A DNA stretch of 64,000 nucleotides from an uncultured Gammaproteobacteria bacterium (GCA_964538435.1 CAZIDX010000001.1:203304-267303), one strand, 5' to 3'; positions 11,992 through 64,000 are shown, counted from the stretch's first letter. Numbers and translations are program-made. The notes: generated by a model not told the origin, from the sequence alone.

Positions 11992-12233
11992 ACGTTTTCG
12001 TCTAGCCATTTCCTTCCTTGCACACATTTGAGAAACCTCTCTCTTTTCATGGCTTCAGACTTTGTTTGATACTCTTCTACATGGATTAAACTAAATGGCC
12101 CATTTTGTCTAGTCCATTGATTTGTACCAGTTAGGTGTTCATGCAATCGTACATTAACATCCCTGCTTGTAAAACCAACGTATCTTTTGTTGTTTTTTGT
12201 ACTACGCAAGACGTAGACCGAATATTTCTTCAT
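11982..12233 (-). CDS. GIY-YIG nuclease-domain protein (UPF0213/YhbQ-like)
   Basis: YSVYVLRSTKNNKRYVGFTSRDVNVRLHEH. The 3' end overlaps the tRNA-Asn 5' end by ~10 nt. Confidence 0.65.
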   Translation of the reverse strand: MKKYSVYVLRSTKNNKRYVGFTSRDVNVRLHEHLTGTNQWTRQNGPFSLIHVEEYQTKSEAMKRERFLKCVQGRKWLDENVRG

Positions 12234-12237
12234 ACAG

Positions 12238-12329
12238 CCCCCGCCGGAGGCGGGTCCGCCTTTGGCGGAAGTTGCTCTGCCACAAAGCTCTGACCGAAGG
12301 TCAGTCCGCCTCTGGCGGAACCCCCGAAT
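12238..12329. other. tRNA-Asn 5'-half-like fragment interrupted by four 13-15-nt GC hairpins with tetraloops (possible ncRNA or att-site remnant)
   Basis: AGTTGCTCTGCCACAAAGCTC … ACCCCCGAA matches the tRNA-Asn antisense CAGTTGCTCTGCCACTGAGCTACCCCCGAA. Hairpins: CCCGCCggagGCGGG, TCCGCCtttGGCGGA, CTGACCgaagGTCAG, TCCGCCtctGGCGGA. Confidence 0.5.
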
Positions 12330-12471
12330 CTATTCTTTTCTCAAAGAACGAGGAGAGTATAGCAAAAACCAACACCACGCGCAAGGGTCTAAATCCACAT
12401 GCAAACTCTTGAAGTTTTTACTCCTTCATGTTAAACAAACCACGGCAAAACAACCCCCTGGAGAACACCAG

Positions 12472-13326
12472 ATGCCCATCAAACTCGTTGTCACTGACTT
12501 CGACGGCACCATGACCGACGCTGAAGCCGAAGGCCTCCCCTTCATCGAGAGCTACACCGAGATGCTCCTGCACCTCACTGGCCTGGACACCGGGACCTTC
12601 TACGCACTCTTCGACGGCATGTCGCAGCAGATCCATGAGCACCCGCACAAGCACGGTGTGAAAAAGGGTGGAATCATGGTGGCACCTGCCATCGTGGACC
12701 CGTACCTGCGCATGCAGACGATTGCTGGCATGATCTTCGACCGCGAAGGGCTGTTCACAGACTCGCGCGACCGAGCCAACCTGCTCGAGATGATGTTCAG
12801 GGCCAGCTACGCCAAAACCGATGTCGTGCCTCGTCTAGGCGCTGTCGAGCTTCTCACCGCACTCACCCAGAGCAGCGACCTCGACACCTGCATCGTGACC
12901 AATGCACGGACCAAGAGCGTTCAGCACAAACTCGAAGTCATGGGCATGAACTCTGGCAGCATTCCGCTTTGCGCAAATGCCCAGAAATTCTTCATCGGAG
13001 ACGATCCCGCTCGCATCCCCGAGCGCATCCAACTGCTCGAAGAAACCGACGATCACCGCTGGATCTACCCGCGCCGCAGCAAGTACTACGAGCTGCTGAA
13101 CTTCCTTCGCAGACAGAACGAGCTGGACTGGTCCGAGATCTGCGTCATCGGCGACATCTTCGAACTCGACCTGGCCCTCCCCTTCCTCCTGGGCTGCGAG
13201 GTCATCCTGATCGTCAACGACATGACGCCAGGCTACGAAATCGACTGGCTCTCTCGCCTGACAGACGCGCGCGCACGAATCTTCGGCGACCTCAACGACG
13301 TCCGAGGTTACCTCCTCGGATACTAA
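12472..13326 (+). CDS. HAD-superfamily hydrolase (high-GC gene)
   Basis: Motif I VVTDFDGTMTD, RBS GGAG upstream. Start moved from 12262 to the ATG at 12472. Confidence 0.7.
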   Translation: MPIKLVVTDFDGTMTDAEAEGLPFIESYTEMLLHLTGLDTGTFYALFDGMSQQIHEHPHKHGVKKGGIMVAPAIVDPYLRMQTIAGMIFDREGLFTDSRDRANLLEMMFRASYAKTDVVPRLGAVELLTALTQSSDLDTCIVTNARTKSVQHKLEVMGMNSGSIPLCANAQKFFIGDDPARIPERIQLLEETDDHRWIYPRRSKYYELLNFLRRQNELDWSEICVIGDIFELDLALPFLLGCEVILIVNDMTPGYEIDWLSRLTDARARIFGDLNDVRGYLLGY

Positions 13327-13353
13327 CCCCGCCTTGCGGGGTTTTCTGATATA
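13327..13353 (+). terminator. GC hairpin CCCCGCcttgCGGGG plus TTTTCTGATATA (conserved high-GC-block terminator motif)
   Basis: Seen directly. The motif recurs at 14787-14800, 27361-27397, 43758-43770, 62241-62255 (minus strand) and 63427-63439 (minus strand). Confidence 0.6.
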
Positions 13354-13389
13354 CTCTAACTGATCCCGACTAACCCTTAACACAAACCT

Positions 13390-14407: not shown

Positions 14408-14436
14408 TTGACAAAAAGCGGTTTTTGATTTAGTAT
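14408..14436 (+). promoter_or_regulatory. Sigma70-like promoter (TTGACA-17-TAGTAT) overlapping the NUDIX-gene terminator hairpin
   Basis: TTGACA at 14408-14413, TAGTAT at 14431-14436. Hairpin ACCGCttgacaaaaaGCGGTTTTT at 14403-14427. Confidence 0.45.
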
Positions 14437-14462: not shown

Positions 14463-14735
14463 GTGACCGAGACCCGCACGCAAAAGCAATCCGACCTGGC
14501 CTTCTCTGGCCTGCTGTGCAGCATCCTGATGCTCGTGGGTGCGCTCATCGGCGCATACATGATCATCAGTGATTTCCAGGGATCCCTGGGAATCCCCATG
14601 CTGGTCGTCGGAGGGGCCTCGATCGCGAGGCTCTTCATCAATCGACGCCTCAACCACAACACCCCGCTCGCGAAGATCGCGGCAATCTGCGGGGTCTTCC
14701 TGTGCGGAGGAGGGCTTGCCTTCCTCGTGTACTAG
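14463..14735 (+). CDS. Small hydrophobic membrane protein (high GC, GTG start)
   Basis: GGAGG RBS 7 nt upstream of the GTG. ~3 TM helices. Confidence 0.4.
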   Translation: MTETRTQKQSDLAFSGLLCSILMLVGALIGAYMIISDFQGSLGIPMLVVGGASIARLFINRRLNHNTPLAKIAAICGVFLCGGGLAFLVY

Positions 14736-14849
14736 CAGCCCAACGCCGGGCCGCTACCTACCACCTAATGCATCAGCGCAAAGGGTGGTTTTCTGATACT
14801 ATACCCGCTGGAATTGTCATGCTAGAATACTCGCGTAATAACAATCTTT

Positions 14850-20952: not shown

Positions 20953-21339
20953 ATGGAAACCTCAATTTTCCTAGCTCAACTCATCGGGTTTACCTACCTT
21001 GTGATGGGTATTGCCGTTTTTGTGCGAGCCAAAGACATTAACCACATGATGAAGGACTTTGAAAAAAATCCTGGAATCATGTTCTGGGCCTCAGCAATGG
21101 CACTCGTTGCTGGAATGGCAATCGTGCTTACTCACAATGTCTGGGACACAACCTGGCAAGCCATCATCAGCCTCTTTGGTTGGCTGGCCCTCCTTAAGGG
21201 AATCTTCCTTGCAGTCGCTCCAAAGCCACTCCTAAAATTCTCAGGATTCCTACAGTCAGAAAAGTACGCAAAAATCTGCGGAGTAATCATGGTGCTCGTA
21301 GCCATCTACATCCTAGGAAGCGGCCTAGCCTGGTTCTAG
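20953..21339 (+). CDS. Hypothetical membrane protein (4 TM)
   Basis: Hydrophobic 128-aa ORF. Confidence 0.4.
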   Translation: METSIFLAQLIGFTYLVMGIAVFVRAKDINHMMKDFEKNPGIMFWASAMALVAGMAIVLTHNVWDTTWQAIISLFGWLALLKGIFLAVAPKPLLKFSGFLQSEKYAKICGVIMVLVAIYILGSGLAWF

Positions 21340-21342
21340 CCT

Positions 21343-21933
21343 ATGATCGAAGTTGAAAAGAAATTCCGTCTCGACCCAGATCAAGAGGCCAAGCTTATTG
21401 ATGGCGCAGAATTCATGGGTGAATACACAAACCATGACATCTATTTTGATCAAGACGATTTCCATCTGACAAAAGATTTTAACTGGCTGAGAAAACGCAA
21501 TGGAAGATTTGAACTGAAAAAGCGTGCCCACAAACTTCAACCTGCAGGATTCTCTGGTGTGTACATGTATGACGAGATAGAAGACGAAGCTCAAATCGCT
21601 GAGACTCTCGGAATTGCATACACTGGAAATCTCGAAACAGATCTCGAGACAAATGGATATCTCCCATTCTCTGAATATGTTGTAAGTCGACGAAGTTACA
21701 AACAAGGACTCTTTCGAATTGATTTCGATTCCTGTGATTTCGACTACACAGTCGTCGAAATAGAGCGCATGGTTGATTCAGACGATCAAAAACAACAAGC
21801 TCTAGATGAAATCAACGCATTTGCTAAAGAAATCGGAATCGATACCACCCCAGCCACTGGCAAACTCATCGAGTACCTCAAACGCTTTTCACCAGACCAT
21901 TACAAGATCCTGCAAGACGCAGGTGTTGTCTAA
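21343..21933 (+). CDS. CYTH-domain protein (triphosphate tunnel metalloenzyme)
   Basis: N-terminal IEVEKKFRL (the ExExK CYTH signature). Confidence 0.7.
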   Translation: MIEVEKKFRLDPDQEAKLIDGAEFMGEYTNHDIYFDQDDFHLTKDFNWLRKRNGRFELKKRAHKLQPAGFSGVYMYDEIEDEAQIAETLGIAYTGNLETDLETNGYLPFSEYVVSRRSYKQGLFRIDFDSCDFDYTVVEIERMVDSDDQKQQALDEINAFAKEIGIDTTPATGKLIEYLKRFSPDHYKILQDAGVV

Positions 21934-21937
21934 ACGT

Positions 21938-22582
21938 ATGAAACACGTATCACTTTTTCTCTTTGTTCTTTTGTTTACCGGAGCTGGATGTGTTCCAGCA
22001 ATCACCGACTCTCTCACGGACACAACCGACGCTGACGTAGATCTAGATAGCATGCCAGAATACAACGACTGCGTAACCACAACAGCACACGACAGCTGCA
22101 TTGACTCAGATGGAAACGACGAAGCCCTCATTGGAACCTGGCAGCTTGAATCCATCACTATCTCTGGAGCTGTCATGAGCTTCTCAGGCCACACCCTTGA
22201 AATCGATTGGGGCTCATTTAACACAGACTACTCAACCGAACAATACACAAGCCCAACCGTTCCAGAAGAATCTTGTTTCTTTGACGGATCCACACGAGGA
22301 TATCATTACGCTTCATCAGAAGTCGATACATCAGACCCACCAATCACCACCAACTATCTAGACATTGCAAAAACAGAAGGCAGTGTCACATCAACATGCG
22401 AAGCCGCAGAAACAACGGTCACTCAAGTCACAAACATGTCGCTTGGAACAGGAGCAGCAAACCCAACCGCCATGATCGAAGGAGCTGTGCTCTACACCTA
22501 CACCATGCCAGACGATTGGAGCACGCTTATCATGACCGCATCGCATGTGCCTGTAACATACACCTACACACGAACTCAGTAG
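21938..22582 (+). CDS. Lipoprotein (lipobox LFTGAGC), Thr/Ser-rich
   Basis: Start moved to MKHVSLFLFVLLFTGAGC. Confidence 0.5.
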   Translation: MKHVSLFLFVLLFTGAGCVPAITDSLTDTTDADVDLDSMPEYNDCVTTTAHDSCIDSDGNDEALIGTWQLESITISGAVMSFSGHTLEIDWGSFNTDYSTEQYTSPTVPEESCFFDGSTRGYHYASSEVDTSDPPITTNYLDIAKTEGSVTSTCEAAETTVTQVTNMSLGTGAANPTAMIEGAVLYTYTMPDDWSTLIMTASHVPVTYTYTRTQ

Positions 22583-22583
22583 C

Positions 22584-23465
22584 ATGACCCCAGCAGCAAA
22601 ACTTCTGCGTTGGTACAAAACACACGGCCGAGACTTGCCATGGAGAAAGACCCGTGATCCTTATCGTATCCTTGTTAGCGAGATCATGCTCCAGCAAACT
22701 CAAGTAAACCGAGTGATCATCTACTACAAAGAATGGCTCAAGCGTTTTCCAAACTGGAAGTGGCTTGCCAAAGCATCAAATGCAGATGTTATTCATGCAT
22801 GGGCAGGGCTCGGCTACAATCGCCGAGCTCTTGCACTGCGCGACATCGCCATCCACATCAAGAAATACGGCACCCCGCTCACAGAAGAAGCCTGGATGAG
22901 CATTAAGGGAATCGGTCCATACACTGCCGCAGCAATCAGCGCCTTTGCACAACAAAAACGCACACTCCCCATCGACACCAACATCAGACGCGTAATCGGC
23001 CGCCTGTTGCTTGGACGCCCTTTTCCTGGACTTCGGGACGATTTTCGCATAAAAGCCGTTTCAGACGCATTTCTACCCCGCAGAGGGGCTTATTATGATG
23101 TCCCACAGGCCATCTTTGACCTCTCAACCTCAATCTGCAAAAAACAACCACTCTGCAACGCATGCCCGCTAAAAAATGACTGCAAGTCAGCAAAGGCATT
23201 CCTTTCTGGCAAAATAAAACCTGAGCGTCTTACAAAGAAACAAAACGAGCGTAAACATACAGGCAAGCGCTACCCAGACCGCATCTACAGAGGCAGAATT
23301 CTCAAACTCCTCCGCGAACAGAACTCTGTGCAGATCAACAAAATCGGTCCGCACATTGACCCAACATTTGATATAATCAAAGACGAAACATGGCTTCTGT
23401 CCATGATCAACCGCTTAATAACAGATGGTTTAATTGCCAAACATGGAAACATATTAACGTTATAA
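22584..23465 (+). CDS. HhH-GPD DNA glycosylase with 4Fe-4S cluster loop (MutY/Nth family)
   Basis: LPWRKTRDPYRILVSEIMLQQTQV… and CKKQPLCNACPLKNDC (Cx6Cx2Cx5C). Confidence 0.75.
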   Translation: MTPAAKLLRWYKTHGRDLPWRKTRDPYRILVSEIMLQQTQVNRVIIYYKEWLKRFPNWKWLAKASNADVIHAWAGLGYNRRALALRDIAIHIKKYGTPLTEEAWMSIKGIGPYTAAAISAFAQQKRTLPIDTNIRRVIGRLLLGRPFPGLRDDFRIKAVSDAFLPRRGAYYDVPQAIFDLSTSICKKQPLCNACPLKNDCKSAKAFLSGKIKPERLTKKQNERKHTGKRYPDRIYRGRILKLLREQNSVQINKIGPHIDPTFDIIKDETWLLSMINRLITDGLIAKHGNILTL

Positions 23466-23467
23466 CT

Positions 23468-23896
23468 ATGAATCAACCGAAACGACTTCAGTGGGAAGAT
23501 TCCTACAGTGTTAAAGTCGAAGAAATCGACAACCAACACAAAAAAATCATCACACTCATCAACCAGCTCTACGACGCAATGCTTGCAAATGAGATGGAAA
23601 CAACTGTTCACGACATCCTTGCTGAAATGCAAACATACGCTGACACACACTTTTCTACAGAGGAAAAATACTTTGACGAGTTCAACTACGAAGACACTGA
23701 AGCCCACACAAAAACACATGAGGCCTATCGAGAAAAAGTCCTCACCTTCATGCACATACTCGAAGAAACACCAGCAGACGGCATGACCGCATTCATGCTC
23801 AGTCTACTCTCGTTCCTTGAAGACTGGTGGATCGGCCACATCCTGCATAGCGATCAAGAATACGTTGAATGCTTTGTAAAAAACGGGCTATCATGA
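23468..23896 (+). CDS. Bacteriohemerythrin-like protein
   Basis: WEDSYSVKVEEIDNQHKKII…HFSTEEKYF…. Confidence 0.65.
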   Translation: MNQPKRLQWEDSYSVKVEEIDNQHKKIITLINQLYDAMLANEMETTVHDILAEMQTYADTHFSTEEKYFDEFNYEDTEAHTKTHEAYREKVLTFMHILEETPADGMTAFMLSLLSFLEDWWIGHILHSDQEYVECFVKNGLS

Positions 23897-24144
23897 CCGA
23901 GTTTAAAAAGCGCGTTTACGAAATCGTCCGCGCAATCCCAAAAGGTCGAACCTTGACCTACAAAGAAGTTGCAAAAGCTGCTGGACGCCCGCAAGCCTAC
24001 CGTGCTGTTGGAAATATTTTAAACAAGAACTACGACCCTGCGATTCCATGTCACAGGGTCGTTCGTTCTGATGGAACAGCTGGTGGCTACAATCGAGGGG
24101 AGGCCCAAAAACAAGACCGCCTTCACGAGGAAGGGGCCTTGTAG
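23893..24144 (+). CDS. Methylated-DNA-protein-cysteine methyltransferase DNA-binding domain protein (MGMT family)
   Basis: …IPCHRVVRSDGTAGGY… (active-site PCHR). ATGA overlap with the previous gene. Confidence 0.7.
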   Translation: MTEFKKRVYEIVRAIPKGRTLTYKEVAKAAGRPQAYRAVGNILNKNYDPAIPCHRVVRSDGTAGGYNRGEAQKQDRLHEEGAL

Positions 24145-24473
24145 GTGAGGACTCCGTTGCGCTAACTTGGCTAAGGGAAGTCGGACATCCCGCTGCGCGG
24201 GACGCATTTCAGAAACGTTCGGTTCAGCAATTACCAATCCGTCGCCTCCGATGAGCTTGGCCCATAAGGACTTGCCGCGTAGCTCTCATGCTACAGACAC
24301 GTCTGAAGCAGTTCTAAGCTATAAGCCATTTGTTTGCCCAAATTAGCACTGGGAGTCATTAATAGTTTAGCAACCCCAATCTCGAAACGCAAGGCAAACA
24401 AAAAACCCCACCTTTTGGTGAGGTCAACAGCCGAATCAAGGCTTGCTTGTCCCGCCAACGGCGGTGTTTTTTT
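24145..24473 (+). ncRNA. Candidate non-coding RNA or long structured 3' UTR (~320 nt, no ORF, ends in a strong intrinsic terminator)
   Basis: No ORF over 60 aa on either strand in a compact genome. Plus-strand terminator CCCGCCaacGGCGGtgTTTTTTT at 24451-24473. A minus-strand terminator for the sigma operon sits at 24398-24425. Confidence 0.3.
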
Positions 24474-24930
24474 ATCGAACTAAAATGACACCCTGAGGAG
24501 AAATCGGCACAAACTTCACAACCTGCTCTTGAGCAGCTTCAGCAAAGTCTGCAAGCGCAACTAGAGGAGCATCTGGATCACTCATGAAATCTGACGCAGG
24601 CACTGTCCCAACATCCACACTTGCAACCTCAGGAGCTGGAATGGCTTCTAAAACAATGTTCGCACCAGCACTGCTTGGCTGCGACTCGATTTGCTGAGTC
24701 GGAGCCAGTGTTGTTGCCATAAAGACAAAGACTCCCACCATAACCGTCCCTGCAACAAGCGGAGCTGAGTACGTAAACACAAAATCCCAACGAGACTTTT
24801 GCCTAGACGACTCAAAATGTTTAGAGCGAAGCAATGCCCGACGGAGCTCATAGCGATGCACAGTATCCTCATGCATCTCTTCACCCATACGCTCAAGCAA
24901 TTCTTCAATTTGAACCTTTTTATGTGTCAT
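24472..24930 (-). CDS. Anti-sigma factor-like membrane protein (single TM)
   Basis: Position immediately downstream of the ECF sigma gene. One central TM helix. Confidence 0.45.
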   Translation of the reverse strand: MTHKKVQIEELLERMGEEMHEDTVHRYELRRALLRSKHFESSRQKSRWDFVFTYSAPLVAGTVMVGVFVFMATTLAPTQQIESQPSSAGANIVLEAIPAPEVASVDVGTVPASDFMSDPDAPLVALADFAEAAQEQVVKFVPISPQGVILVR

Positions 24931-24937
24931 ATGTAAG

Positions 24938-25561: not shown

Positions 25562-25743
25562 ACCCGCACGGGTTGGTTATTAGTTGTTAATACGGGGTAA
25601 GCCGTCTAGTACGAGGGGTATCAGACCCGCGGTTCTCGGGGGAAATACCGCGAGCCTGTCCTCCAATTGCACTCGAACATGCGTTCGACCTTGCACTAAC
25701 TATATCGCAAGTATAGCAAAAAGGTTGCACTCTTAATCAATAC

Positions 25744-25772
25744 TTGACAAAAAAACCCATTTTCGATAGTTT
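25744..25772 (+). promoter_or_regulatory. Sigma70-like promoter TTGACA-17-TAGTTT upstream of the radical-SAM gene
   Basis: TTGACA at 25744-25749, -10-like at 25767-25772. Confidence 0.4.
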
Positions 25773-25773
25773 T

Positions 25774-25822
25774 CTCTCTCCCGCACTAAAGAAAGAGGAC
25801 CCTCTTTAGCGCATGGAGAGAG
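25774..25822 (+). promoter_or_regulatory. Long hairpin (CTCTCTCC…GGAGAGAG) sequestering the RBS of the downstream gene
   Basis: 8-bp outer stem plus inner stem AAAGAGGacCCTCTTT. GGAGAGAGG is the RBS for the ATG at 25829. Confidence 0.45.
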
Positions 25823-25828
25823 GTGACA

Positions 25829-27346
25829 ATGTCACTCCAAACCGACGTCATCCCCGAGCCCAACCAAGAGCTTTTGATGCAGCTCGGCTCGCAAATGGCG
25901 AAAGTTCAAGGCTACCGTCTCCTGGACGGATTCCCCAGACCCCACCTGATGCTCGAAGCAGACGAAGAAGCTGATCCAGGAGATAGATGGTCTGAGCGAC
26001 CCTCGCTCATGGACAAGGACTCCGAACTGATCGTGTGCGTACTCCCGCACTCCATGTGCAACCCCCGCGTTGAAGCCTGCGGCTTCTGCACATTCCCTCA
26101 CGAAAAGCTCGTCATGAGCCAACTTCGCGCCACAGTTCCCATTGTGGCAGAAGAGATCCGACGTCGAGTCGAACTGATGGGAATCAAAGGTCACGAGGTG
26201 CACGCACTCTACTTCGGTGGGAGTACTGCCAACCTGACCCCACCGGATTTGTTCAGCCATCTGGTCACCACCCTGGAAGACAACTTCGAGCTTCGACGCT
26301 CAGAAGTCTCACTTGAGGGTGTTCCTGTGTACTTCATTGGTCGTCGCGGGCTCGAGGTTCTCGACCGGCTGATGGCTACTGAGTTCGCGCACAGACGTAT
26401 CTCCATGGGAATCCAGACCTTCAACGCAGCAGAGATCGAAGAGATGGGTCGCTCCCACTTCGGAGATGAAAGCACCGTACGAAAAGCAGTTTATGAGGCT
26501 CATCAGCGCGGGATGACCGTATCCGGCGACATCATCATCAACCGCCCGGGCCAAACCCAGGATCAGATGCTCAACGATGTCCGCAAAGCCATCCAGATCG
26601 GTCTGGATCAGATCTGCATCTACAACCTGGTGCTCCGCTCATACCTCAAGACCCCATGGTCTCAAGACCCCGAGAAACTCGCTTCTCTCCCCGTGGGCGA
26701 AGAAGCCTTCCAGAACTGGCGGTCAGTCGTTGAAATCCTGAATCATGCTGGCTACGTCCAGACAACCCTCTCGAACTTCGAACGCAGAGACGTTCTCGAA
26801 GCCGGAAGAGGCTTCCGCTACGAAGAGGCTGGCTTCCAAACCTGGCGCTACGACGCGCTCGGGTTCGGCCCCAGGGCACTGACCATCTTCAAGGGATCAG
26901 GACGATCCATTCCTAGCCAGAAGTGGATGAATCACTACGGCGCAGAACCGTACATGAACAACCAGCTTCGTGCCACTGAGAACCAGATCCCCTACGACAA
27001 GCACCACGCGTACGAATCGCGCGAGGACCTGCTGCTGCACCACATGACCCGTTCGCTTGCACTCCTGCAAGTCGACCGACACCTCATGATGAGCCTCACT
27101 GGTCGCGATCCTGTGCGTGTCTACCGCCAAAAGATGGAGGTGCTCGAGCACGCTGGCCTGGTGAAGATCACAGACGAAGAGATCAGGCTCACGCATCGCG
27201 GAGCTTTCTTCTCAGACTCAATCATCGCCCTTCTCACCATGCGCCGAGAGCGCACGCTCAAGGCAGACAACGCAGACGCGCGACACAGGCGGAAGTACGG
27301 GTGGGCCTTCAGCTCCGACTACTCCTACGGAGGCGGCGGAATGTAG
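25829..27346 (+). CDS. HemW/HemN-like radical SAM family protein (high GC) with unusual Cys spacing
   Basis: …IVCVLPHSMCNPRVEACGFCTFPHE… (C-x7-C-x6-C-x2-C rather than CxxxCxxC). …HALYFGGSTANL… HemN_C-like C-terminal region. Confidence 0.55.
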   Translation: MSLQTDVIPEPNQELLMQLGSQMAKVQGYRLLDGFPRPHLMLEADEEADPGDRWSERPSLMDKDSELIVCVLPHSMCNPRVEACGFCTFPHEKLVMSQLRATVPIVAEEIRRRVELMGIKGHEVHALYFGGSTANLTPPDLFSHLVTTLEDNFELRRSEVSLEGVPVYFIGRRGLEVLDRLMATEFAHRRISMGIQTFNAAEIEEMGRSHFGDESTVRKAVYEAHQRGMTVSGDIIINRPGQTQDQMLNDVRKAIQIGLDQICIYNLVLRSYLKTPWSQDPEKLASLPVGEEAFQNWRSVVEILNHAGYVQTTLSNFERRDVLEAGRGFRYEEAGFQTWRYDALGFGPRALTIFKGSGRSIPSQKWMNHYGAEPYMNNQLRATENQIPYDKHHAYESREDLLLHHMTRSLALLQVDRHLMMSLTGRDPVRVYRQKMEVLEHAGLVKITDEEIRLTHRGAFFSDSIIALLTMRRERTLKADNADARHRRKYGWAFSSDYSYGGGGM

Positions 27347-27405
27347 CCGCAACCAAAACACCCCACACTGAAACGCAGTGCGGGGTTTTCTAATACTCAA
27401 TAACC

Positions 27406-31242: not shown

Positions 31243-31310
31243 ATTATATCACGAACCAATTTTCAGCCCAATAAGAAAGCTCCCGAGATTACTCCCAGGA
31301 GCGCGTTGCG

Positions 31311-32645
31311 TCAAGGTGCTGGCGGATACTTGTTGGCCTCTGCCTGTTCCAAACGCATGAAGAAGTGTTCGAGAGCCGCCTGGCCTTCCGGCCTAGGATT
31401 CTCCTGCACAACCAGTGAGAGCCGTGCCACTTCATCGTATTCATCGAGCGCGTCATAGAGCTTGAGCGCTGCGTCGCTGTAACCAACCTCTTCCATTGAC
31501 TTCGCAAACGCGTAGAGTTCCTGCGTCTGCTCGTCTGCACTCAGCCCTGTCCGTGGATACCACAGAAAAAGCCGGGCCAGTTGATGTGGGTTGCACGGCT
31601 TGGGAAGATCCAGCCACGGCGCATACGGATTTCCCCCAAACACGAACGTGTTGGCTGCGTCGCTCACCACCTCCCAGGCGGCATTTTGTGCATCTTCTTC
31701 CATCCCAAGCTCACGATACATACTGTACGAACGGTGCGGCTCTGGACGCGGATGCCCATCCTCACAGATGTGCAGCGTCATGAAGTAGTCAGCTAGATGC
31801 GTTTTCCACTGCCGTTGCTTGACCGTGTGTCCAAGCACCTCAGAGAGCCACATGAGATGATCGAGCCGTTCTGCAAGCATTGAACACCAGAACGGATCCT
31901 GCACATCTGCATGCGCGAGCTGCATCATATACTCGTCTGTGTATCGAACCTTGGGATCAAAGCCGTCTTCTTTCTCGATCACGACCTCGAAAAACTGTTC
32001 GTACTCCTGAGCCTTGGGCAGAAGCTTCTCGTCACCCCCACTGGCATCCCACGCTCGGCGGAAAATCCAGAACGCATCCTCGGGATCATGAACCCCGGCC
32101 CCTGCTTGAGCTTCAGCTCCAGCTGCCTTGAGCCAGACATCGAACGTGTCGAGGTACTGATCGATCGCAGCGTGGTGCACGGGAATGAGATCCACGTAAG
32201 CTCGCATGATGGTCAGATGATCTGTGCTTCGGTCTGCCACATCCTGAATCTCCGAAAAAACCCCGCTGGCTTCATCGAAAAGATCCGGATCGTTCTGGAC
32301 CGCACGGATCCAGTTGCTCACCATGGTGGACTCGCTGTAGTACTCGCCTTGTCGCCACTGCTCAGTGTACTTACGTGCTCGCTCGAGCTCGTTCAAGGGT
32401 GGCGCCAAAGGCTCAGGCTCATACAGCTCTGTTTCAAGCTGCTCCTCCTGCACCGAACCATCGTCATCAGCGTAATCATTGCTCTCATAGCTTGGATCCC
32501 AGCTAATCACCACAAAGGCAATCACCGCGAACACCCCAAGCCCGAGCCATGCCTTCCAACTACCAGGCTTCGCTTCCACGTTCCCTCCAGTGTTCGTACA
32601 TTTTGACGTACACGCAAAACTACCCCAAAAACACTCCATTGTCAA
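31311..32645 (-). CDS. Hypothetical membrane-anchored protein (high GC)
   Basis: Intact ORF with high-GC codon usage and an N-terminal TM. Confidence 0.4.
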   Translation of the reverse strand: MTMECFWGSFACTSKCTNTGGNVEAKPGSWKAWLGLGVFAVIAFVVISWDPSYESNDYADDDGSVQEEQLETELYEPEPLAPPLNELERARKYTEQWRQGEYYSESTMVSNWIRAVQNDPDLFDEASGVFSEIQDVADRSTDHLTIMRAYVDLIPVHHAAIDQYLDTFDVWLKAAGAEAQAGAGVHDPEDAFWIFRRAWDASGGDEKLLPKAQEYEQFFEVVIEKEDGFDPKVRYTDEYMMQLAHADVQDPFWCSMLAERLDHLMWLSEVLGHTVKQRQWKTHLADYFMTLHICEDGHPRPEPHRSYSMYRELGMEEDAQNAAWEVVSDAANTFVFGGNPYAPWLDLPKPCNPHQLARLFLWYPRTGLSADEQTQELYAFAKSMEEVGYSDAALKLYDALDEYDEVARLSLVVQENPRPEGQAALEHFFMRLEQAEANKYPPAP

Positions 32646-32747: not shown

Positions 32748-33551
32748 ATGCCATCCGAAACCGCAGCGAAACTGCTCGAAAACTGGCTCAAGCGCGGATA
32801 CATGCGCTCGCGGGTCGAAGAATACGCACAGTCCCTACGCTCCAGTGATGACAGCTTCTACACATCAACTCTCGATCACAAGGGAAAAGATGCAGCCGAA
32901 GCTCATCTCGCCGAGATGATCGCCAAGCGTCACATGCACGAGTTCGCGAACGCCATCGAGCCGGCTGTCCGAGGCCTGCTCGCCCTGGCCAAGATCGAAG
33001 ACAAGGGCCTCATCAGGATTCTGGACCCCTCCATCTCGCTCGAGAGCGATTACAACTTTGCCTTCACCGAAGCCACGCTCGTGTTCAAGAACGAGATGGC
33101 TCCGGGATGCAGCTGCATGCAACCCCAGGGCAGCAACATCTTCGGTCGCTGGGGATCCGACCTGGAGCTGATCGCTGTCACCCTGCGCGTCGGAACCCAC
33201 CGCGATGGATACCCGGTCGCCAAGCTCGGCCTGGTCATGCCTTGCCGTCAGGTCGTCCGCTATGGCAAGAACGCTCGCGAAGCTTACACCATCCTCACCT
33301 TCGACCTCAAAGGCGACAACGGAGGTTCGCAGTACACACTCGAAGACGACCACTTGGTGCACTTCGCACACCTGATCGGTGAACAAAGTGATAGAAACAT
33401 GATGGTGGGCACCATGACGGGTGGCAGCATCTCTACCCGCGTCGGCTTCCCCGGCGCCAGCGACTACTTCGCCAAGTATCTCAAGGACCTCGGCCCCTTC
33501 CTCGAAGGTCTGGCCAAGCACCTCGATCCGGATCACCTGCTCCAGCACTGA
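32748..33551 (+). CDS. Hypothetical protein (high GC)
   Basis: GGGAGG RBS then ATG at 32748. Confidence 0.45.
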   Translation: MPSETAAKLLENWLKRGYMRSRVEEYAQSLRSSDDSFYTSTLDHKGKDAAEAHLAEMIAKRHMHEFANAIEPAVRGLLALAKIEDKGLIRILDPSISLESDYNFAFTEATLVFKNEMAPGCSCMQPQGSNIFGRWGSDLELIAVTLRVGTHRDGYPVAKLGLVMPCRQVVRYGKNAREAYTILTFDLKGDNGGSQYTLEDDHLVHFAHLIGEQSDRNMMVGTMTGGSISTRVGFPGASDYFAKYLKDLGPFLEGLAKHLDPDHLLQH

Positions 33552-33652
33552 TCCACAACCGCTACGCACCCGACAAGGACGCATCCGCTTCCTACCGGGT
33601 GCGTCTTTGTTTTCAAACAGAAAAGAGACCAGGGGGTCTCTTGCGTGTGAAC

Positions 33653-34765
33653 CTACAGGTCCACCGTGTTGGAGCGAAGCCACTCTGCTTGTGGCGGCTC
33701 CCAGGTCTCGGTTGAATCCCCGAGGTCTGCGGGGTCAGTGTAGCTACGGATGTAGCTTGCCACATCAAACTGTCCGATCTCGTCAGCGTACTCCGCTCCC
33801 TGGTTCAGGAGCATGACCAGCGAACGGTCGTTCATGCCCGACAGTGCATACCAGAGCACTGCCTCATCAACGAGCTCCTCGTCACTTCCAGACACCTGGA
33901 GCTCCTGAACGAACTGCTCCTGACACGCATTGAGTTCGACCGGTGTCGTCCCAACAGCCGCTGTGAGCGCTGCATTCCCCATGGAAACCGCTGCAGCCTG
34001 AGCCTCGACCTCCATCTGGCCGCCATGATACAGCATCCAGGCCATCTGGGGATCGTATGTGCCATCCGGCACGCCCCCGCACATGTAGCACGACAGAGCA
34101 GCATCACCGCCATGCATCATCCAGATCTTGCGGTCGTGCATACCCAGAAGGTCTCCGAGCATCCCAACCATCATGATCTGGTTTGAAAGACTGGTGCACA
34201 CAAACGGATCGTACGGAGCATTGACCTCCTCGCTGTCTCGGTAACGACTCGCTGGATTGAATCCTGCAAGCCGAATCCGAGTCCGCCCCAAATCGTAGAG
34301 CATCTCCAGAGCCGGAACTAGATGAGGCGTCTGCGTCGCGTACCAATGATCCCAGGTCATGGCGTACACAACGATGTACAAGTCATCGTTCTTGATGTCC
34401 GAGTCGATCAGGTCTCTGGCAAAAGACTCGTAGCGGCTATACGCACTCGGAAACTCTTCACCAGCCATCAGGTAGAGACCAGCGATGCTCAGAGGCTCGT
34501 ACGCACTCTGGTCATTGCGCCAGACCTCTTCGGCGATTGACGCAAGACCCAGAACCTCGTTGCCGGTCAGTTGAACCGGATTCTCACCGTTCTCGTCCAC
34601 GAGAAAAACCGTATGGCCCTCTTCTGTCTGCACGAGCACAATCAGATCTGGACTCGGAAGAGTGCTTGCCGCACGATCCATGCTCGTCACCAGCACCAAC
34701 GCAGCCACCAGGATCACACCCAACACAATCGCGACGTACTTTTGCATCCGTTTCCTCCAGCTCAC
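33653..34765 (-). CDS. Hypothetical membrane-anchored protein (high GC)
   Basis: N-terminal TM. Hairpin terminator AGAGACCagggGGTCTCT downstream. Confidence 0.4.
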   Translation of the reverse strand: MSWRKRMQKYVAIVLGVILVAALVLVTSMDRAASTLPSPDLIVLVQTEEGHTVFLVDENGENPVQLTGNEVLGLASIAEEVWRNDQSAYEPLSIAGLYLMAGEEFPSAYSRYESFARDLIDSDIKNDDLYIVVYAMTWDHWYATQTPHLVPALEMLYDLGRTRIRLAGFNPASRYRDSEEVNAPYDPFVCTSLSNQIMMVGMLGDLLGMHDRKIWMMHGGDAALSCYMCGGVPDGTYDPQMAWMLYHGGQMEVEAQAAAVSMGNAALTAAVGTTPVELNACQEQFVQELQVSGSDEELVDEAVLWYALSGMNDRSLVMLLNQGAEYADEIGQFDVASYIRSYTDPADLGDSTETWEPPQAEWLRSNTVDL

Positions 34766-42793: not shown

Positions 42794-43240
42794 GTGGAAA
42801 TTCTCAAATCCGTCTTGTTCATCGAGTTCCTGGTCGACTGGCCCCTTGGCACGTTCATGGCCCTGCTCATCTATGCAGGCATCCTGGGCGGCATCTCGTT
42901 CCTGATCTACTGGATCTACACCGAGCTCAACGAATACAACCGCCCGGCCATCCGCGGTCCGGCCGTCATCATCAGCAAGACCTTCATTGCTGCACACCCT
43001 CAACTCGTACCTGACTTCAACTCGTCAGATGGAACTGTGGAGATGATCCGTGTCAACATTCCAGACCATTGGTATATCACCATCATGGTCAAAGGTTCAG
43101 TGCCTCTGCAAGGATCAATCTCTGTAGCGCAACACCTCTACGAATCCGTCGAGGAAGGCCAAGTGGTGGAAGCTCTCTACTACATCACGCGATTCTCCCA
43201 CGAGCTCAAACCCCAAGAACTCTACCAGACCGCGGCGTAG
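42794..43240 (+). CDS. Small N-terminally anchored membrane protein (high GC), paralog A
   Basis: GTG start after GGAGG. A tandem paralog follows. Confidence 0.4.
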   Translation: MEILKSVLFIEFLVDWPLGTFMALLIYAGILGGISFLIYWIYTELNEYNRPAIRGPAVIISKTFIAAHPQLVPDFNSSDGTVEMIRVNIPDHWYITIMVKGSVPLQGSISVAQHLYESVEEGQVVEALYYITRFSHELKPQELYQTAA

Positions 43241-43249
43241 GAGAAGAAC

Positions 43250-43708
43250 ATGAGGCTGCTCGATAACATCTTCATGGTCGCCATCTCAACCCTGGTCTGG
43301 GGCCTCATCGCGTACATGTGCCTCAAAGCGTTCCTGTGGCTCTTCAACAAGGCCGATGGATACAAGCGCCCGACCATCAAGACCAACGCCAAAGTCACTG
43401 GCAAGAGAATCATCCCAGCCCATGTCAAACAAGTGACTGACTGGGACTACGAGCACGATGTTCCACACGACTTCGAAGTCGAAGTGCCTGACAAGCACAT
43501 CCTCGAAGTCATCATCAACGAAAAGCCTGCGGAAACCTCCGTAACGAGCGTGCTCTACCCACGCATCAAGACCGGTGATGAGATCCCTGTCTACTACAGC
43601 ACAGGCCGAATCACCAAAAAGATCGTGAGTGCAGAACCCATCTGGCCAAAGCTCTTCAAGCGCTTCCCAGCCCCAAAAACCCACTCAGACTCCCCACCCG
43701 CGGCATGA
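43250..43708 (+). CDS. Small N-terminally anchored membrane protein (high GC), paralog B
   Basis: Same architecture as 42794..43240. Confidence 0.4.
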   Translation: MRLLDNIFMVAISTLVWGLIAYMCLKAFLWLFNKADGYKRPTIKTNAKVTGKRIIPAHVKQVTDWDYEHDVPHDFEVEVPDKHILEVIINEKPAETSVTSVLYPRIKTGDEIPVYYSTGRITKKIVSAEPIWPKLFKRFPAPKTHSDSPPAA

Positions 43709-43831
43709 CCCACGCAAGCCATGCCACCCCCCGCCATAGCTCGCCAGAGCGACGGCGGGTTTTCTAATTGAAAAACCCCTCGTCCGGAGACTCAGGGTTC
43801 GTTGTGCTCGGTGCGTCCGAACACTCTGGAT

Positions 43832-44680
43832 CTACAGATCCGTGACCAACTCCTCGTACCCAGCCTCGCGCGCGGCGCGCTTGAGACGAAGCAAGTTGAG
43901 CTTGTCCACGTTGACCAGGACCTTGCCGATCGTGTCCTTGTTGACCCGGTCGTTGGGCACATAGCCGGCCATGTGGTTGAGGTAGAACTGGGCCACCTCG
44001 GGCGACTCGAACGTGTAGCCGTGCCGCGCCAGGATGCCGTTGTAGACCAGGTGCAGCTCCTCGTACGTCAGCGGCGCGAGCCACTCGACCTCGAGCTTGT
44101 TGCCATCAGCCACCCAGTCCATCAGGGCCAGAGGCGTGGCCTCGAACACGAAGTGGGGGTGTTCGGACTCGATGCTCTCGTACAGAGCCACGATCACGAA
44201 CTCGCGCTCCTCGGGCACCTCGGTCTCGCACTCGCAGTCCTCGAGGGGAAGCGCGCTGTCTCCCATGGGCTCATACTCGAACTGATCCCAGAAGGCCGTG
44301 CACTTGTGATGCTCCTCGGCCGCGAGGATCGCCTTCACCGCAGCATGGTCGTTGGGCGACATGAGCTGTTCGACCGTCTCGGACGTCACGGACTCGTCGC
44401 GCTGGTAGCGCTCCTCACCGATGAAGTGCTCGAGCACCCATTCGTTCGTGAACGCGAACCCGTGCCGCGCGTACACCGCGTTGCGCAGGATGCGCAGCTG
44501 CAAGCACTCGAACCGTTCCATGTTGTCCAGCTCGGTGAGCCGACCGTTCATGAGCAGGTCGTACGTGATGCTCAGATCCGCCTCACGCTCCTTGAGCTCA
44601 GCTTCTGCGGTCACACCCATCACACTCGCCGGCAGCATCGCTGCCAACACCATTCCGATCACCAGAACCAGCTCCCGCAT
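43832..44680 (-). CDS. YARHG-domain protein (two repeats) with signal peptide, high GC
   Basis: LRILRNAVYARHGFAF and LHLVYNGILARHGYTF. Confidence 0.65.
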   Translation of the reverse strand: MRELVLVIGMVLAAMLPASVMGVTAEAELKEREADLSITYDLLMNGRLTELDNMERFECLQLRILRNAVYARHGFAFTNEWVLEHFIGEERYQRDESVTSETVEQLMSPNDHAAVKAILAAEEHHKCTAFWDQFEYEPMGDSALPLEDCECETEVPEEREFVIVALYESIESEHPHFVFEATPLALMDWVADGNKLEVEWLAPLTYEELHLVYNGILARHGYTFESPEVAQFYLNHMAGYVPNDRVNKDTIGKVLVNVDKLNLLRLKRAAREAGYEELVTDL

Positions 44681-61751: not shown

Positions 61752-61859
61752 AATCCTACCTGAAAACTGGTATTTAGTCGAGATTAAAGTCTAACATCCA
61801 AAGCTAGACGTCCAAAGTTAGACTTTGAATCAGAAAAGCGACCCTGCGTGGATCGCTCG

Positions 61860-62186
61860 TCACATGATGATGGTGAATCCAGGGCCTGTGTACGACGGTC
61901 GCTCCCATGGATACGGGAAAATGTACGGATCACGGTTGGGATGGTCAGTGAGTTCGACCCACTCCCGATACTCTTGCATGCACTCCGCCTCTTCGGACTC
62001 AGTGAGATCCTCTTGGCCCGCACAGGTCGGTGCAGGATCGTTGTAGTGAGCACAGTAACGCTCCCAGCTGGCATTCTTGGGCTCCTCACACCCAAGAGGC
62101 AGCTGCTCCTCTTCTTCCTGCTCGACCGTCGCGCAGCCGTAGAGCAGAATCACGCCCATCATGATCATCAGGAGTCCCCGGTTCAT
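61860..62186 (-). CDS. Small acidic Cys-containing lipoprotein (high GC, lipobox LYGCA)
   Basis: MNRGLLMIMMGVILLYGCA. Confidence 0.45.
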   Translation of the reverse strand: MNRGLLMIMMGVILLYGCATVEQEEEEQLPLGCEEPKNASWERYCAHYNDPAPTCAGQEDLTESEEAECMQEYREWVELTDHPNRDPYIFPYPWERPSYTGPGFTIIM

Positions 62187-62281
62187 ATCTCTCTCCTAGA
62201 TAGGGTTCAGATAAACCCTCGCATAAATATTCTAGCTCGTCAATTAGAAAACCCCGACCGAAGTCGAGGTCCGTGCCTAGA

Positions 62282-62803
62282 TCAGGTGACCCAGGGCATT
62301 TGCGAACGATATCTGCCCTCGAGCACACCGATCAGTGCCTTGCGCGCACTCGGCAGATCCTTGGCATGCACACGGATGTTCATGCGCCTGGAATCGTCCT
62401 TGGTGGGACTGGTCGAGATCACAGCCCCCACCCTGCCATCATCGCTCTTCCAGGTCCCAGGCTTGAGGGCCTTCTCGTCAGTGCGATACACCGTGACCCA
62501 GCTCTCGAGCTGCACGTCGCGCACCGGAACACCCTCGAACTTGCTCTCCACGAACAGCTGATCGCAGGTCGGATCGATCGCCAGGTCCAGACGCGCACAC
62601 AGCGTACCATCGTGCCTGCGCATGATCGTGTCCCCCTCACGGAACTTGTTCACCGGCATGAGCCAAGGAACCTTGCTCTGCTCGAGCTGCTCACGAAACT
62701 CCCCAAGCGGAAGATCCTTGCGCCCGCTGGTTGGCATCTGACATTTGCTCGGATCCATCCCAACAGCCTTCGGATCCATGATGACGAAAACCTGTCCGTA
62801 CAT
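62282..62803 (-). CDS. Hypothetical protein (high GC)
   Basis: Intact ORF. Terminator with the TTTTCTAATTG motif downstream. Confidence 0.4.
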   Translation of the reverse strand: MYGQVFVIMDPKAVGMDPSKCQMPTSGRKDLPLGEFREQLEQSKVPWLMPVNKFREGDTIMRRHDGTLCARLDLAIDPTCDQLFVESKFEGVPVRDVQLESWVTVYRTDEKALKPGTWKSDDGRVGAVISTSPTKDDSRRMNIRVHAKDLPSARKALIGVLEGRYRSQMPWVT

Positions 62804-62926
62804 GCAATTTCCCCAATCGAGTTCTCAACAGCCGGACGTTGCGTGCCCCCAAGCACCTCATGTGCTTAGCAACCACAAGATCATGCCAAATCCTCAACAA
62901 AACGTCAAGAAAAGAAAAACCCAGAC

Positions 62927-63319
62927 TTACGCCTGAGCAGAGCCGCCGAACGCATCGGCGGGTGTGATGTTCTCTCCAGGAGCATGGAGCTTGAACGATG
63001 GCGTGTCACCAACCACGATGAGAATTGATTCATCCTCGAGTCGATGCGGAGTGCTGTCACAGAGCGGAACCAGCGGAGAATTGAGCCCATCACCAGACTT
63101 GATGATGTGAGGCCGCGCATCAACCATTCCCCGATACGCCACCCACTCCGGACGAAAAAGCACAGAGTCACCCACTCGAACCATGGCACCCATGGGACCT
63201 CGAAACAGCATGATCGGACCGAGCTTCAACACAACCTCAAAATCAAGCCCTCTCACACTGAATTCATAGAGCAACTCATCCCAGTCCATAGGACCCACCC
63301 GAATCATTGAACCATCCAT
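62927..63319 (-). CDS. Hypothetical protein (high GC)
   Basis: Intact 130-aa ORF. Confidence 0.4.
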   Translation of the reverse strand: MDGSMIRVGPMDWDELLYEFSVRGLDFEVVLKLGPIMLFRGPMGAMVRVGDSVLFRPEWVAYRGMVDARPHIIKSGDGLNSPLVPLCDSTPHRLEDESILIVVGDTPSFKLHAPGENITPADAFGGSAQA

Positions 63320-63471
63320 CGCGCTTCACCTCCTAGCAACATTCACAGATAACGACCATACCAAAACCCGCAAATCCGTCAAACCAACACCCAGTGTCCA
63401 ACACTGGATGCCCAACACTGGATGTTGAATTAGAAAAGCGTACCGTATTACCGATACGCTCCGTTGGTGGC

Positions 63472-64000
63472 CTAGGCCACCTTGATCTCGATCGAGTCCA
63501 GGGCTTGCCCCAGATCCCAGATCAGATCCTTCTCCGCCTCGGCTCCGACCGAGAGCCGGATCATGTTCTCGGTGATCCCGATGCGCTCCTGGTCCTCATT
63601 GGACACATCCGAGTGTGTGTGCCAGGCAGGTGCCTCAGCCAGCGTGATTGTCCCACCCAGACTCACAGCCAGACGGGCAATCTTCAGCCTGTTGAGCACC
63701 CTGAAGATGTCTTCCTTGCCACCCTTGACCGTGAAGGACATGAGCGACCCACCGCCACGACACTGCTCCTTGAAACGCCGCATCTGCTCCTCATCCTGCT
63801 CGAACCCAGGGTAGTAGACCTTGTCCACTGCCGGATGTTCGTGCAGGAACCGAGCGATCCGCTGCGCCCGCGCCTGAGTCCACTCGATGCGCATGTGCAG
63901 AGTCTCGAGACTGCGAAGCAGCATCCAGGCCGTGTGCACACCGATCACCGTACCCAGAATCGTACGGAACGCCTTGAGTAGAGTGATCTGTTCGATGCTC
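63472..64000 (-). CDS. Cystathionine gamma-synthase/beta-lyase-family PLP enzyme, C-terminal part (gene continues beyond the window end)
   Basis: …HPAVDKVYYPGF… GGSLMSFTVKGG… SLGGTITLAEAPAWHTH… LIRLSVGAEAEKDLIWDL… Reading frame is open through 64000. Confidence 0.65.
   Translation of the reverse strand, partial: SIEQITLLKAFRTILGTVIGVHTAWMLLRSLETLHMRIEWTQARAQRIARFLHEHPAVDKVYYPGFEQDEEQMRRFKEQCRGGGSLMSFTVKGGKEDIFRVLNRLKIARLAVSLGGTITLAEAPAWHTHSDVSNEDQERIGITENMIRLSVGAEAEKDLIWDLGQALDSIEIKVA

Follow-up and report, generated by a model that had tools for sequence, protein, structure and literature searches.

The window analysed here, a 64,000-nucleotide (nt) stretch of contig CAZIDX010000001.1 (203304-267303, assembly GCA_964538435.1), contains six blocks of GC-rich genes, several of which end in a hairpin followed by the motif TTTTCTRAT. 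These blocks probably represent a long-resident, fast-evolving accessory gene class of one Candidatus Uhrbacteria subclade, with a high GC content at third codon positions (GC3) and ordinary terminators. An earlier reading made from the DNA itself (the sequence-only reading) had proposed instead that they were acquired repeatedly from a high-GC donor lineage that brought its own terminator signature, or that they form a family of cassette-like elements. In the scheme that we favor, the blocks would consist of single genes or short runs of genes that are clade-restricted or only distantly related to other proteins, and each gene or gene pair would be its own transcription unit with a sigma-70-type promoter and a canonical Rho-independent terminator. 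In this terminator a stem closed by G/C would be followed by an imperfect U-tract of 7 nt (UUUUCUR) and then by A-U at the presumed transcript end, and core genes would use the same layout with an unbroken U-run (T5-6 then GAT). The C at position 5 of the U-tract, like the G/C-rich stems, could come from the same GC-enriching regime as the genes or from a common history, at a position that presumably tolerates it.

The window carries the core chromosomal genes ligA, gatA, gatC, recJ, lepA, dnaG, rpoD and a macB-type ABC exporter, as well as two tRNAs (the only Rfam matches). Its LepA and that of a Candidatus Uhrbacteria metagenome-assembled genome share 82% identity, and about 30 Uhrbacteria lepA neighborhoods, with a local GC of 0.35-0.58, were recovered in a scan of one genome per species. 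On this basis, the window is a chromosome segment of a Candidatus Uhrbacteria bacterium (Patescibacteria, also termed candidate phyla radiation, CPR).

In a 500-nt profile, GC is 0.55-0.64 at 12.5-13.5, 26-27.5, 31.5-34.5, 43.5-44.5 and 62-64 kb versus 0.40-0.50 elsewhere. The block at 14.4-14.8 kb is below the resolution of this profile and is visible per gene and at 100-nt resolution, so the six blocks recognized in the sequence-only reading are all real. They are distinct from the backbone as described, but the background itself is not uniform, since a separate low-GC island (0.35-0.42) lies at 1.4-11.9 kb. The blocks comprise 13 GC-rich open reading frames (ORFs; Table 1), each with a GC of 0.54-0.63 and a GC3 of 0.56-0.89. 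Weighted over the class, GC is 0.577, with 0.62, 0.39 and 0.72 at the first, second and third codon positions (GC1, GC2 and GC3), whereas the 40 core ORFs have a mean GC of 0.460 (GC1 0.57, GC2 0.37 and GC3 0.44, with a GC3 range of 0.33-0.58). GC steps of 0.12-0.2 are confined to 100 nt around gene or terminator edges. These values support the GC-rich genes as a distinct compositional class. Their products had been described as mostly hypothetical, exported or membrane proteins, which holds for about seven of the 13, with an N-terminal transmembrane (TM) segment, signal peptide or lipobox (translations judged by eye); the HAD, radical SAM, CGS, 173-aa and 130-aa proteins and ORF288 look cytosolic.

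Evidence for long residence comes from related Uhrbacteria. Two adjoining stretches of contig FLOH01000056.1 (GCA_900089805.1), here L081 and L087, are collinear with the window at 15-53 kb; the other loci include L001, the TARA marine contig L082 and a JGI contig with a HAD orthologue, for which the comparison covers the protein neighborhood and not GC3. Positional orthologues exist for ten of the 13 genes (HAD, radical SAM, hyp444, hyp370, the two paralogues, YARHG, 173-aa, 130-aa and CGS), the others being ORF288, which is absent, the 90-aa gene and the 108-aa lipoprotein gene. Core proteins of the window and FLOH01 are mostly 70-98% identical (MacB 86%, ABC ATPase 87%, YknX 86%, RpoD 95-98%, GatA 89%, and LigA 85%), with lower values for CYTH (53%) and DnaG (~58%). 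The GC-rich orthologues in L081 and L087 occupy the same slots at 27-66% identity, a protein divergence three to four times that of their neighbors. Their GC3 is 0.65-0.79 versus 0.30-0.62 for the other genes there (mostly below 0.50), and in L082 hyp370 (0.65) and hyp444 (0.59) stand above the other genes (0.24-0.45; RpoD 0.45 and YknX 0.24). GC3 is elevated in the GC-rich orthologues of every relative whose DNA could be read.

Between the window and FLOH01, the six GC-rich pairs compared have a divergence of 0.60-1.23 at four-fold sites, and the 29 other pairs one of 0.54-1.83. Both gene classes therefore appear to have diverged together, and the low protein identity of the GC-rich class reflects faster amino-acid change and not older separation. 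Taken with the positional orthologues, the shared GC3 elevation and the lack of a closer donor, this similar synonymous divergence indicates that the genes were present before these genomes separated. Ancestry to the lineage, which the sequence-only reading had itself named as a refutation of repeated acquisition, thus holds for at least ten of the 13. Some turnover of the class exists: genome-specific members are ORF288 in the window, an unrelated 105-aa gene that adjoins ligA in L001, and ORFs of 79, 116 and 238 aa in L087.

Searches with individual genes place them either within the clade or far from any other protein. The best match of the HAD protein among 1.84e9 cluster representatives has 57% identity and the next at most 42%; in the JGI contig, a Bact_hydrolase gene follows that of the 57% homologue and a cupin gene is close by, the same arrangement as in the window. 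The radical SAM protein has one relative at 55%, the L081 orthologue in the same slot (GC3 0.66), and the remainder are at most 46% identical, with source-named matches outside the clade from the high-GC phyla Armatimonadota, Planctomycetota and Myxococcota (41-43%). Only three proteins among 5.8e9 match hyp444, namely itself, that of L081 (57%) and that of the TARA contig (50%), all from this subclade; the gene is syntenic in L081 (57-59%, GC3 0.65) and L082 (GC3 0.59). Orthologues of hyp370 are found in L081 (61%, GC3 0.67) and L082 (43%, GC3 0.65). The two small single-TM proteins are distant paralogues of each other (22% identity, BLASTP E 1e-9), and L087 has orthologues of both in the same slot (A 28% and B about 66-67%; GC3 0.66 and 0.72), as well as one of the YARHG protein (63%, GC3 0.79). 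Syntenic homologues of the 173-aa (31%, GC3 0.59) and 130-aa (40%, GC3 0.69) proteins adjoin lepA in L001, and CGS homologues (51-52%) adjoin lepA in loci L004 and L006, with a GC 4-7 points over their flanks.

The earlier observation of a shared 3' motif is confirmed. TTTTCTRAT occurs ten times in the window versus 2.1 +/- 1.6 expected, and ten copies were reached in none of 100 shuffles. Seven copies directly abut stable hairpins 15-55 nt past the stops of GC-rich genes; six of these had been listed exactly, and a seventh, at 61829-61837 on the minus strand, had been missed. The remaining matches (20244-, 40341- and 53747+) are inside or antisense to coding sequence, about the number expected by chance. 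Each of the seven hairpins folds stably (-13.4 to -20.3 kcal/mol, z -3.2 to -5.7 versus shuffles), with GG or GC at the end of its stem. The motif begins at the first base past the stem and has U at six of nine positions, with the first four invariant and A-T at positions 8-9 in all seven copies. Downstream there is a promoter-like site or a convergent gene. The arrangement has the features of a canonical Rho-independent terminator, and we infer termination itself from these features. The hairpins match no known RNA family in Rfam.

We curated 55 terminators at most 70 nt from stop codons in the window, L081, L087, L001 and L082, using our own scan for a hairpin and T-run (a standard scanner caught one of five TTTTCTRAT sites in the two regions scanned). 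Core genes had been thought to use terminators of the CTCACCATGGTGAG type, but most of theirs are a hairpin followed by T5-7 and GAT(T) (for example T5-6 GAT(T) at 14422, 15933, 46713, 48432, and 54586), and the CTCACCATGGTGAG palindrome is a separate repeated element. Terminators of GC-rich genes read TTTT-C-T-(G/A)-A-T. Both classes have a stem followed by some six pyrimidines, a purine and A/T-T: a purine then T at tail positions 7-9 is found in 21 of 27 GC-rich-class and 22 of 28 core terminators (43 of 55). The RAT part is therefore a general purine-U element and not the mark of a donor. A C at position 5 of the U-tract is present in 17 of 27 GC-rich-class versus two of 28 core terminators and is the sole class-specific terminator feature; stems closed by GG or GC account for 17 of the 27. 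Far from being equally common after low-GC genes, 17 of the 18 TTTTCT tails in five loci stand after genes whose GC3 is 0.58 or more. In the window alone, such tails end eight GC-rich and no core units, against five and 15 without one.

Orthologous terminators have fully diverged stems and a retained tail, which is therefore either conserved or repeatedly regenerated. The radical SAM terminator of L081 has a different stem and the tail TTTTCTAATTCC. The tails of hyp444 read TTTTCTATT in L081 and TTTCTGATT in L082, those of hyp370 TTTTTCTGTTGA and TTTTCTAGTTGA, respectively, that of YARHG in L087 TTTTCTATTT, and that of the 130-aa gene in L001 TTTTCTGAT. The hairpin with TTTTCTRAT is found at seven intergenic sites in the window, two in L001 and two in L081; the other Uhrbacteria lepA loci, about 30 and some of them with 54-58% GC, have none, and it occurs at one of 379 terminator-like sites in non-CPR loci. 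The tail is therefore a feature of this subclade and not of a sampled high-GC donor. Of the terminator signature claimed previously, the association of the C5 variant with the gene class thus stands, while its foreign provenance does not.

High-throughput in vitro termination mapping has recently defined the terminator motif GC(U)7RU, in which bubble-edge elements (G-C/G where the stem ends, and purine-U as the final two RNA positions) enclose a U-tract of 7 nt (Battaglia et al., bioRxiv 10.64898/2026.05.29.728758). The terminators of this subclade match it in sequence phase only. They share with such intrinsic terminators the G/C-rich stem, the 7-nt U-rich tract and purine-U at tail positions 8-9 (Battaglia et al.), the placement 15-55 nt past stop codons, and the back-to-back pairing between convergent genes. 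They differ in the fixed C at U-tract position 5 in one gene class, the T5-7 of core genes being unbroken.

The persistence of the high GC3 calls for its own explanation. GC3 of the class is 0.59-0.79 in four lineages with backgrounds of 0.24-0.50. Each lineage has accumulated about 0.5-0.6 synonymous substitutions since the split from L082 or L001, and our rough two-state calculation predicts that by now the GC3 excess over the core equilibrium should be down to ~40%; simple decay would therefore require that GC3 had been near 0.95-1.0 in the ancestor. In hyp370 and hyp444, synonymous changes polarized with L082 as outgroup number 42 GC-to-AT and 30 AT-to-GC, lower than the ratio of ~2.7:1 calculated for decay under the core regime (p ~0.005, binomial estimate). 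On this balance we lean towards a maintained high GC3 over simple decay. As to its cause, an ancient foreign origin, partly ameliorated and with occasional turnover, has close to an even chance of being correct; active maintenance in place, by GC-biased gene conversion or by codon or mRNA selection, is a serious possibility that also falls short of even; and there is a small chance that something else is responsible. We regard as doubtful the fuller proposition that two compositional gene classes sit at separate equilibria in a ~1 Mb genome, with the GC3 of a scattered, fast-evolving and largely clade-specific set actively held at ~0.7, by GC-biased conversion at hypervariable loci or by class-specific selection, and the terminator C fixed by the same force or selection.

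A specific form of maintenance is that the GC-rich genes are hypervariable and undergo frequent recombination within populations, and that GC-biased repair of mismatches made and held their high GC3 in place, including at tolerated terminator positions. Recombining bacterial genes reportedly tend to higher GC3. The window shares with the heterogeneity attributed to GC-biased gene conversion (Lassalle et al. 2015) a gene-specific elevation mainly at third positions, faster evolution and apparent stability, and differs from it in an unusually large and bimodal contrast (GC3 0.72 versus 0.44). Biased conversion would jointly explain the high GC3, the fast evolution and the sharp edges, the latter because flanking core genes would be too similar to form mismatches. 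The GC3 elevation in all four lineages, the 42:30 balance, which is nearer equilibrium than decay, the three- to fourfold protein divergence and the T-to-C nature of the class marker in the U-tract all fit. However, the 90%-identity clusters of the proteins are all singletons, enzymes such as HAD, radical SAM and CGS would not usually be expected at hypervariable loci, the synonymous divergence does not clearly exceed that of neighbors, and the core control is itself unbalanced. We consider this account possible but rather less likely than not.

Several points weigh against long residence with ordinary terminators. The subclade DNA examined amounts to ~110 kb, and four-fold divergences near 1 are close to saturation. 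The polarization of synonymous changes is rough (a single outgroup, near saturation), with a core control of 53:73. The pooled association of the TTTTCT tail with the class (Fisher p = 1.8e-6) is inflated, as orthologous terminators are not independent, and the test in the window alone (p = 4e-4) is fairer. The tail is not exclusive to the class, since the core gene rpoD of L081 ends in TTTTCTGAT, and it is lacking in five of the 13 GC-rich units of the window. Finally, the GC-normalized dinucleotide signature of the class lies at a distance of 125 from the core (null 30 +/- 9, random 10-kb core subsets), as expected of foreign DNA, although high GC3 with low GC2 may distort this measure and we do not treat it as decisive.

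This signature is among the observations that would fit a series of recent imports, independent of one another, from a single high-GC donor lineage, each gene with the donor terminator; among sampled loci, one of Myxococcota (74) and one of Uhrbacteria with 58% GC (90) come closest in signature. Sharp GC steps at gene edges, radical SAM relatives in high-GC phyla, the existence of genome-specific members, and GC1 and GC2 values that are also shifted as for a ~58% GC genome point the same way. Horizontally transferred genomic islands have the same atypical GC, GC3 and dinucleotide signature, orphan or clade-restricted proteins and sharp boundaries. Unlike such islands, the GC-rich blocks are of single-gene scale, have a GC above and not below that of the host, and keep their positions and GC elevation across genomes ~0.8-1 synonymous substitution per site apart. 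No tRNA target, flanking direct repeat, integrase or transposase was found at any high-GC block; these hallmarks occur only at the low-GC island of the same window (1.4-11.9 kb), a textbook genomic island beside tRNA-Asn with 137-nt direct repeats. Searches of multi-billion-protein collections gave no donor-like homologue outside the congeneric orthologue (radical SAM at most 46% and HAD at most 42%), and nothing outside the genome of the window exceeds 55-57% in the HAD, radical SAM and hyp444 searches. Viral-contig scans with the HAD, hyp370 and 173-aa proteins found no relatives and no sign of phage origin, and the YARHG protein likewise had no relative in a metagenome scan. Recent acquisition is largely refuted by synteny for most genes, given the neighbor-like synonymous divergence of the ten with positional orthologues, and neither the near absence of the hairpin and TTTTCTRAT outside the subclade nor the purine-A-U part shared with native terminators points to a donor. 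We therefore hold it to be unlikely.

The C-interrupted U-tract might instead mark regulated, weak or factor-dependent terminators of co-regulated GC-rich genes. The tail is kept across orthologues while stems turn over, and its association with one class is tight. Strong hairpins (-13 to -20 kcal/mol) can compensate for an imperfect U-tract, however, and the proteins have no functional coherence, which leaves co-regulation very unlikely.

Less probable still are mobile gene cassettes, integron-like or hairpin-targeted, with the hairpin and TTTTCTRAT as recombination site. Like integron attC cassettes, the units are short and end in an imperfect palindrome, many of them being single genes; the terminator of the core gene NT5C resembles that of the paralogue pair, as if duplicated on insertion; and a Y1 (IS200-like) transposase gene is present at 10858-11700. 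Scans of most, but not all, ORFs with Pfam and NCBIfam gave no integrase or recombinase domain, and units lie in mixed orientation on both strands, so the sequence-only reading was right that this is not a classical integron. Its cassette-like family fares no better: the stems of the terminators have no conserved sequence, the U-rich tail alone being common, and upstream of the GC-rich genes there is no common site, just the TTGACA -35 boxes and the -10 boxes of divergent promoters. There is no intI, the units have promoters of their own, and there are no attC-like conserved boxes; unlike attC, the palindrome is followed by a U-run and would behave as a terminator. The slots are also stable across genomes, and L087 has a different NT5C terminator at the slot. 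A chimeric assembly, or mis-binning of a high-GC organism into this 46%-GC genome, is suggested by the compositional contrast alone and is refuted for practical purposes, as the blocks, of 0.3-3.5 kb, alternate with core genes, independent genomes have them in the same arrangement, and an independent Logan assembly of run SRR8146440 is 100% identical to 21311-34938, spanning two GC-rich blocks and their edges.

Table 1. The 13 GC-rich ORFs of the six blocks and their predicted terminators (positions in the window).
Feature	Position	Strand	Description
HAD-superfamily hydrolase gene	12472..13326	+	Pfam PF00702; GC 0.59, GC3 0.79
HAD terminator	13327..13350	+	hairpin CCCCGC-CTT-GCGGGG then TTTTCTGAT; -13.4 kcal/mol, z -3.8
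90-aa membrane protein gene	14463..14735	+	GC 0.61, GC3 0.82; own promoter TTGACA-17-TAGTAT at 14408-14436
90-aa gene terminator	14761..14797	+	hairpin then TTTTCTGAT; fold -14.4 kcal/mol
HemN/HemW-like radical SAM gene	25829..27346	+	Pfam PF04055 and HemN_C; GC 0.57, GC3 0.69
Radical SAM terminator	27361..27394	+	hairpin then TTTTCTAAT; convergent with macB
hyp444	31311..32639	-	N-terminal TM segment, clade-restricted; GC 0.55, GC3 0.61
hyp444 terminator	31270..31302	-	hairpin then TTTCTTATT
ORF288 (267 aa from first Met)	32748..33551	+	orphan, between hyp444 and hyp370; GC 0.59, GC3 0.75
ORF288 terminator	33578..33614	+	hairpin then TTTGTTTTC; back-to-back with hyp370 terminator
hyp370	33653..34765	-	N-terminal TM segment, clade-restricted; GC 0.57, GC3 0.67
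hyp370 terminator	33616..33640	-	hairpin then TTTTCTGTT
Two small single-TM protein genes (148 and 152 aa; paralogues)	42794..43708	+	GC 0.54, GC3 0.71 and 0.73
Paralogue-pair terminator	43730..43768	+	hairpin then TTTTCTAAT; -20.3 kcal/mol; back-to-back with YARHG terminator
Secreted YARHG-domain protein gene	43832..44680	-	Pfam PF13308; GC 0.63, GC3 0.89
YARHG terminator	43766..43797	-	hairpin then TTTTTCAATT
108-aa lipoprotein gene	61860..62186	-	LYGC lipobox; GC 0.57, GC3 0.69; exact gene call on public record
108-aa lipoprotein terminator	61829..61856	-	hairpin then TTTTCTGAT; -15.3 kcal/mol
173-aa hypothetical protein gene	62282..62803	-	GC 0.60, GC3 0.75; own promoter TTGACG-17-CATGAT
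173-aa gene terminator	62243..62269	-	hairpin then TTTTCTAAT
130-aa hypothetical protein gene	62927..63319	-	GC 0.54, GC3 0.56; own promoter TTGACG-16-TATGGT
130-aa gene terminator	62908..62937	-	hairpin then TTTTTCTTTTCT
CGS-family Cys/Met-metabolism pyridoxal phosphate (PLP) enzyme gene, 3' part	63472..64000	-	Pfam PF01053; GC 0.60, GC3 0.78; cut by the window end
CGS terminator	63429..63459	-	hairpin then TTTTCTAAT; -15.7 kcal/mol, z -5.7

Two gene models in Table 1 need comment. The true start of the HAD ORF is near 12472, and a longer 5' extension covers a tRNA-like remnant. The strand of ORF288 is uncertain (region 32685-33683), as the public gene call there is an antisense 239-aa ORF on the minus strand. 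GC values of 0.61/0.40/0.73 at the three codon positions and a plausible protein favor the plus-strand ORF288, in whose place the database probably holds an antisense call. Neither of the two ORFs has any homologue, and ORF288 is missing between hyp444 and hyp370 in both L081 and L082.

Two further observations concern terminator-like sequences. The NT5C terminator at 42706-42740 (CCCGCCAGAGCTACAGCGACGGAGGG-TTTTGGATT) is the one that resembles the paralogue-pair terminator at 43730-43768 (CCCGCCATAGCTCGCCAGAGCGACGGCGGG-TTTTCTAAT), and that of NT5C in L087 is unrelated to it. The palindrome CACCATGGTG, usually as TCACCATGGTGA, occurs five times in the window (18602, 18680, 32319, 53076, and 53603; 0.05 expected) and four times in L081 (3397, 3472, 18161, and 18731), with no copy in the other 86 loci. 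In both genomes copies are found on both sides of a PaaX-like regulator gene and in the convergent spacer of YbjQ and GreA. This placement suggests an operator for the PaaX-like regulator and not the plain terminator as which the sequence-only reading had cited it.

The low-GC island (1273-11893) is bounded by the direct repeats (1273-1409 and 11757-11893; 94% identical) and adjoins tRNA-Asn (11917-11991, minus strand). It encodes a 1058-aa methyltransferase-like protein, DUF2779/RNase H-like and UPF0489 proteins, and the Y1 transposase-family gene, and tRNA-like partial repeats lie at 1429-1458, 1559-1588, 7770-7799 and 12270-12301. The island looks like an element integrated at a tRNA, possibly a defence island; its dinucleotide signature is near that of the core (distance 38). 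At 10631-11030 a 200-nt unit is repeated twice in tandem (99% identical) and reaches from the end of the preceding ORF into the beginning of the Y1-transposase-like gene; this could be a genuine duplication or an assembly artefact.

Elsewhere, a 224-aa ORF at 46727-47401 (minus strand; GC 0.37, GC3 0.30, no Pfam match) is missing from the otherwise collinear L087 and is a low-GC insertion specific to the window. The two neighboring ORFs at 45917-46689, suspected ribosomal protein genes with a GC3 of 0.43-0.45, have no Pfam match. Conversely, L087 carries ~7.7 kb (2300-10000) lacking in the window, between the DUF389 and TrmB genes, where the spacer of the window holds a tRNA-Ser. This insert encodes a reverse-transcriptase-like 335-aa ORF (5010-6017) and a 988-aa secreted protein (6352-9318, minus strand), has a GC of 0.63-0.65 at 3000-4000, and may be a diversity-generating retroelement or a retron-like unit. 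GC skew is below zero in nearly all 500-nt windows irrespective of gene orientation (cumulative -26), and therefore one replication arm probably covers the whole window, with a C-rich plus strand.

Intrinsic terminators and compositional heterogeneity are both of known kinds, and the GC-rich class described here is a new instance of both; a literature search yielded no work on terminators or uneven GC content in Uhrbacteria. Conspicuous patches of high GC that have a 3' motif in common are not necessarily recent imports or cassettes. The terminators offer independent comparative support for the recently proposed purine-U element at terminator 3' ends in a phylum without transcription biochemistry. 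The remaining puzzle, of specialist interest, is a GC3 of ~0.7 in a dozen scattered genes of a small CPR genome, across lineages ~1 synonymous substitution per site apart. If this GC3 is actively maintained, the class would make codon-level selection or GC-biased gene conversion tractable in Patescibacteria. The C-interrupted U-tract would serve as a simple sequence marker to find the class genome-wide. Should the two classes be at separate equilibria, they would form a clean natural system, in an ultra-small episymbiont lineage, for work on class-specific termination or biased gene conversion.

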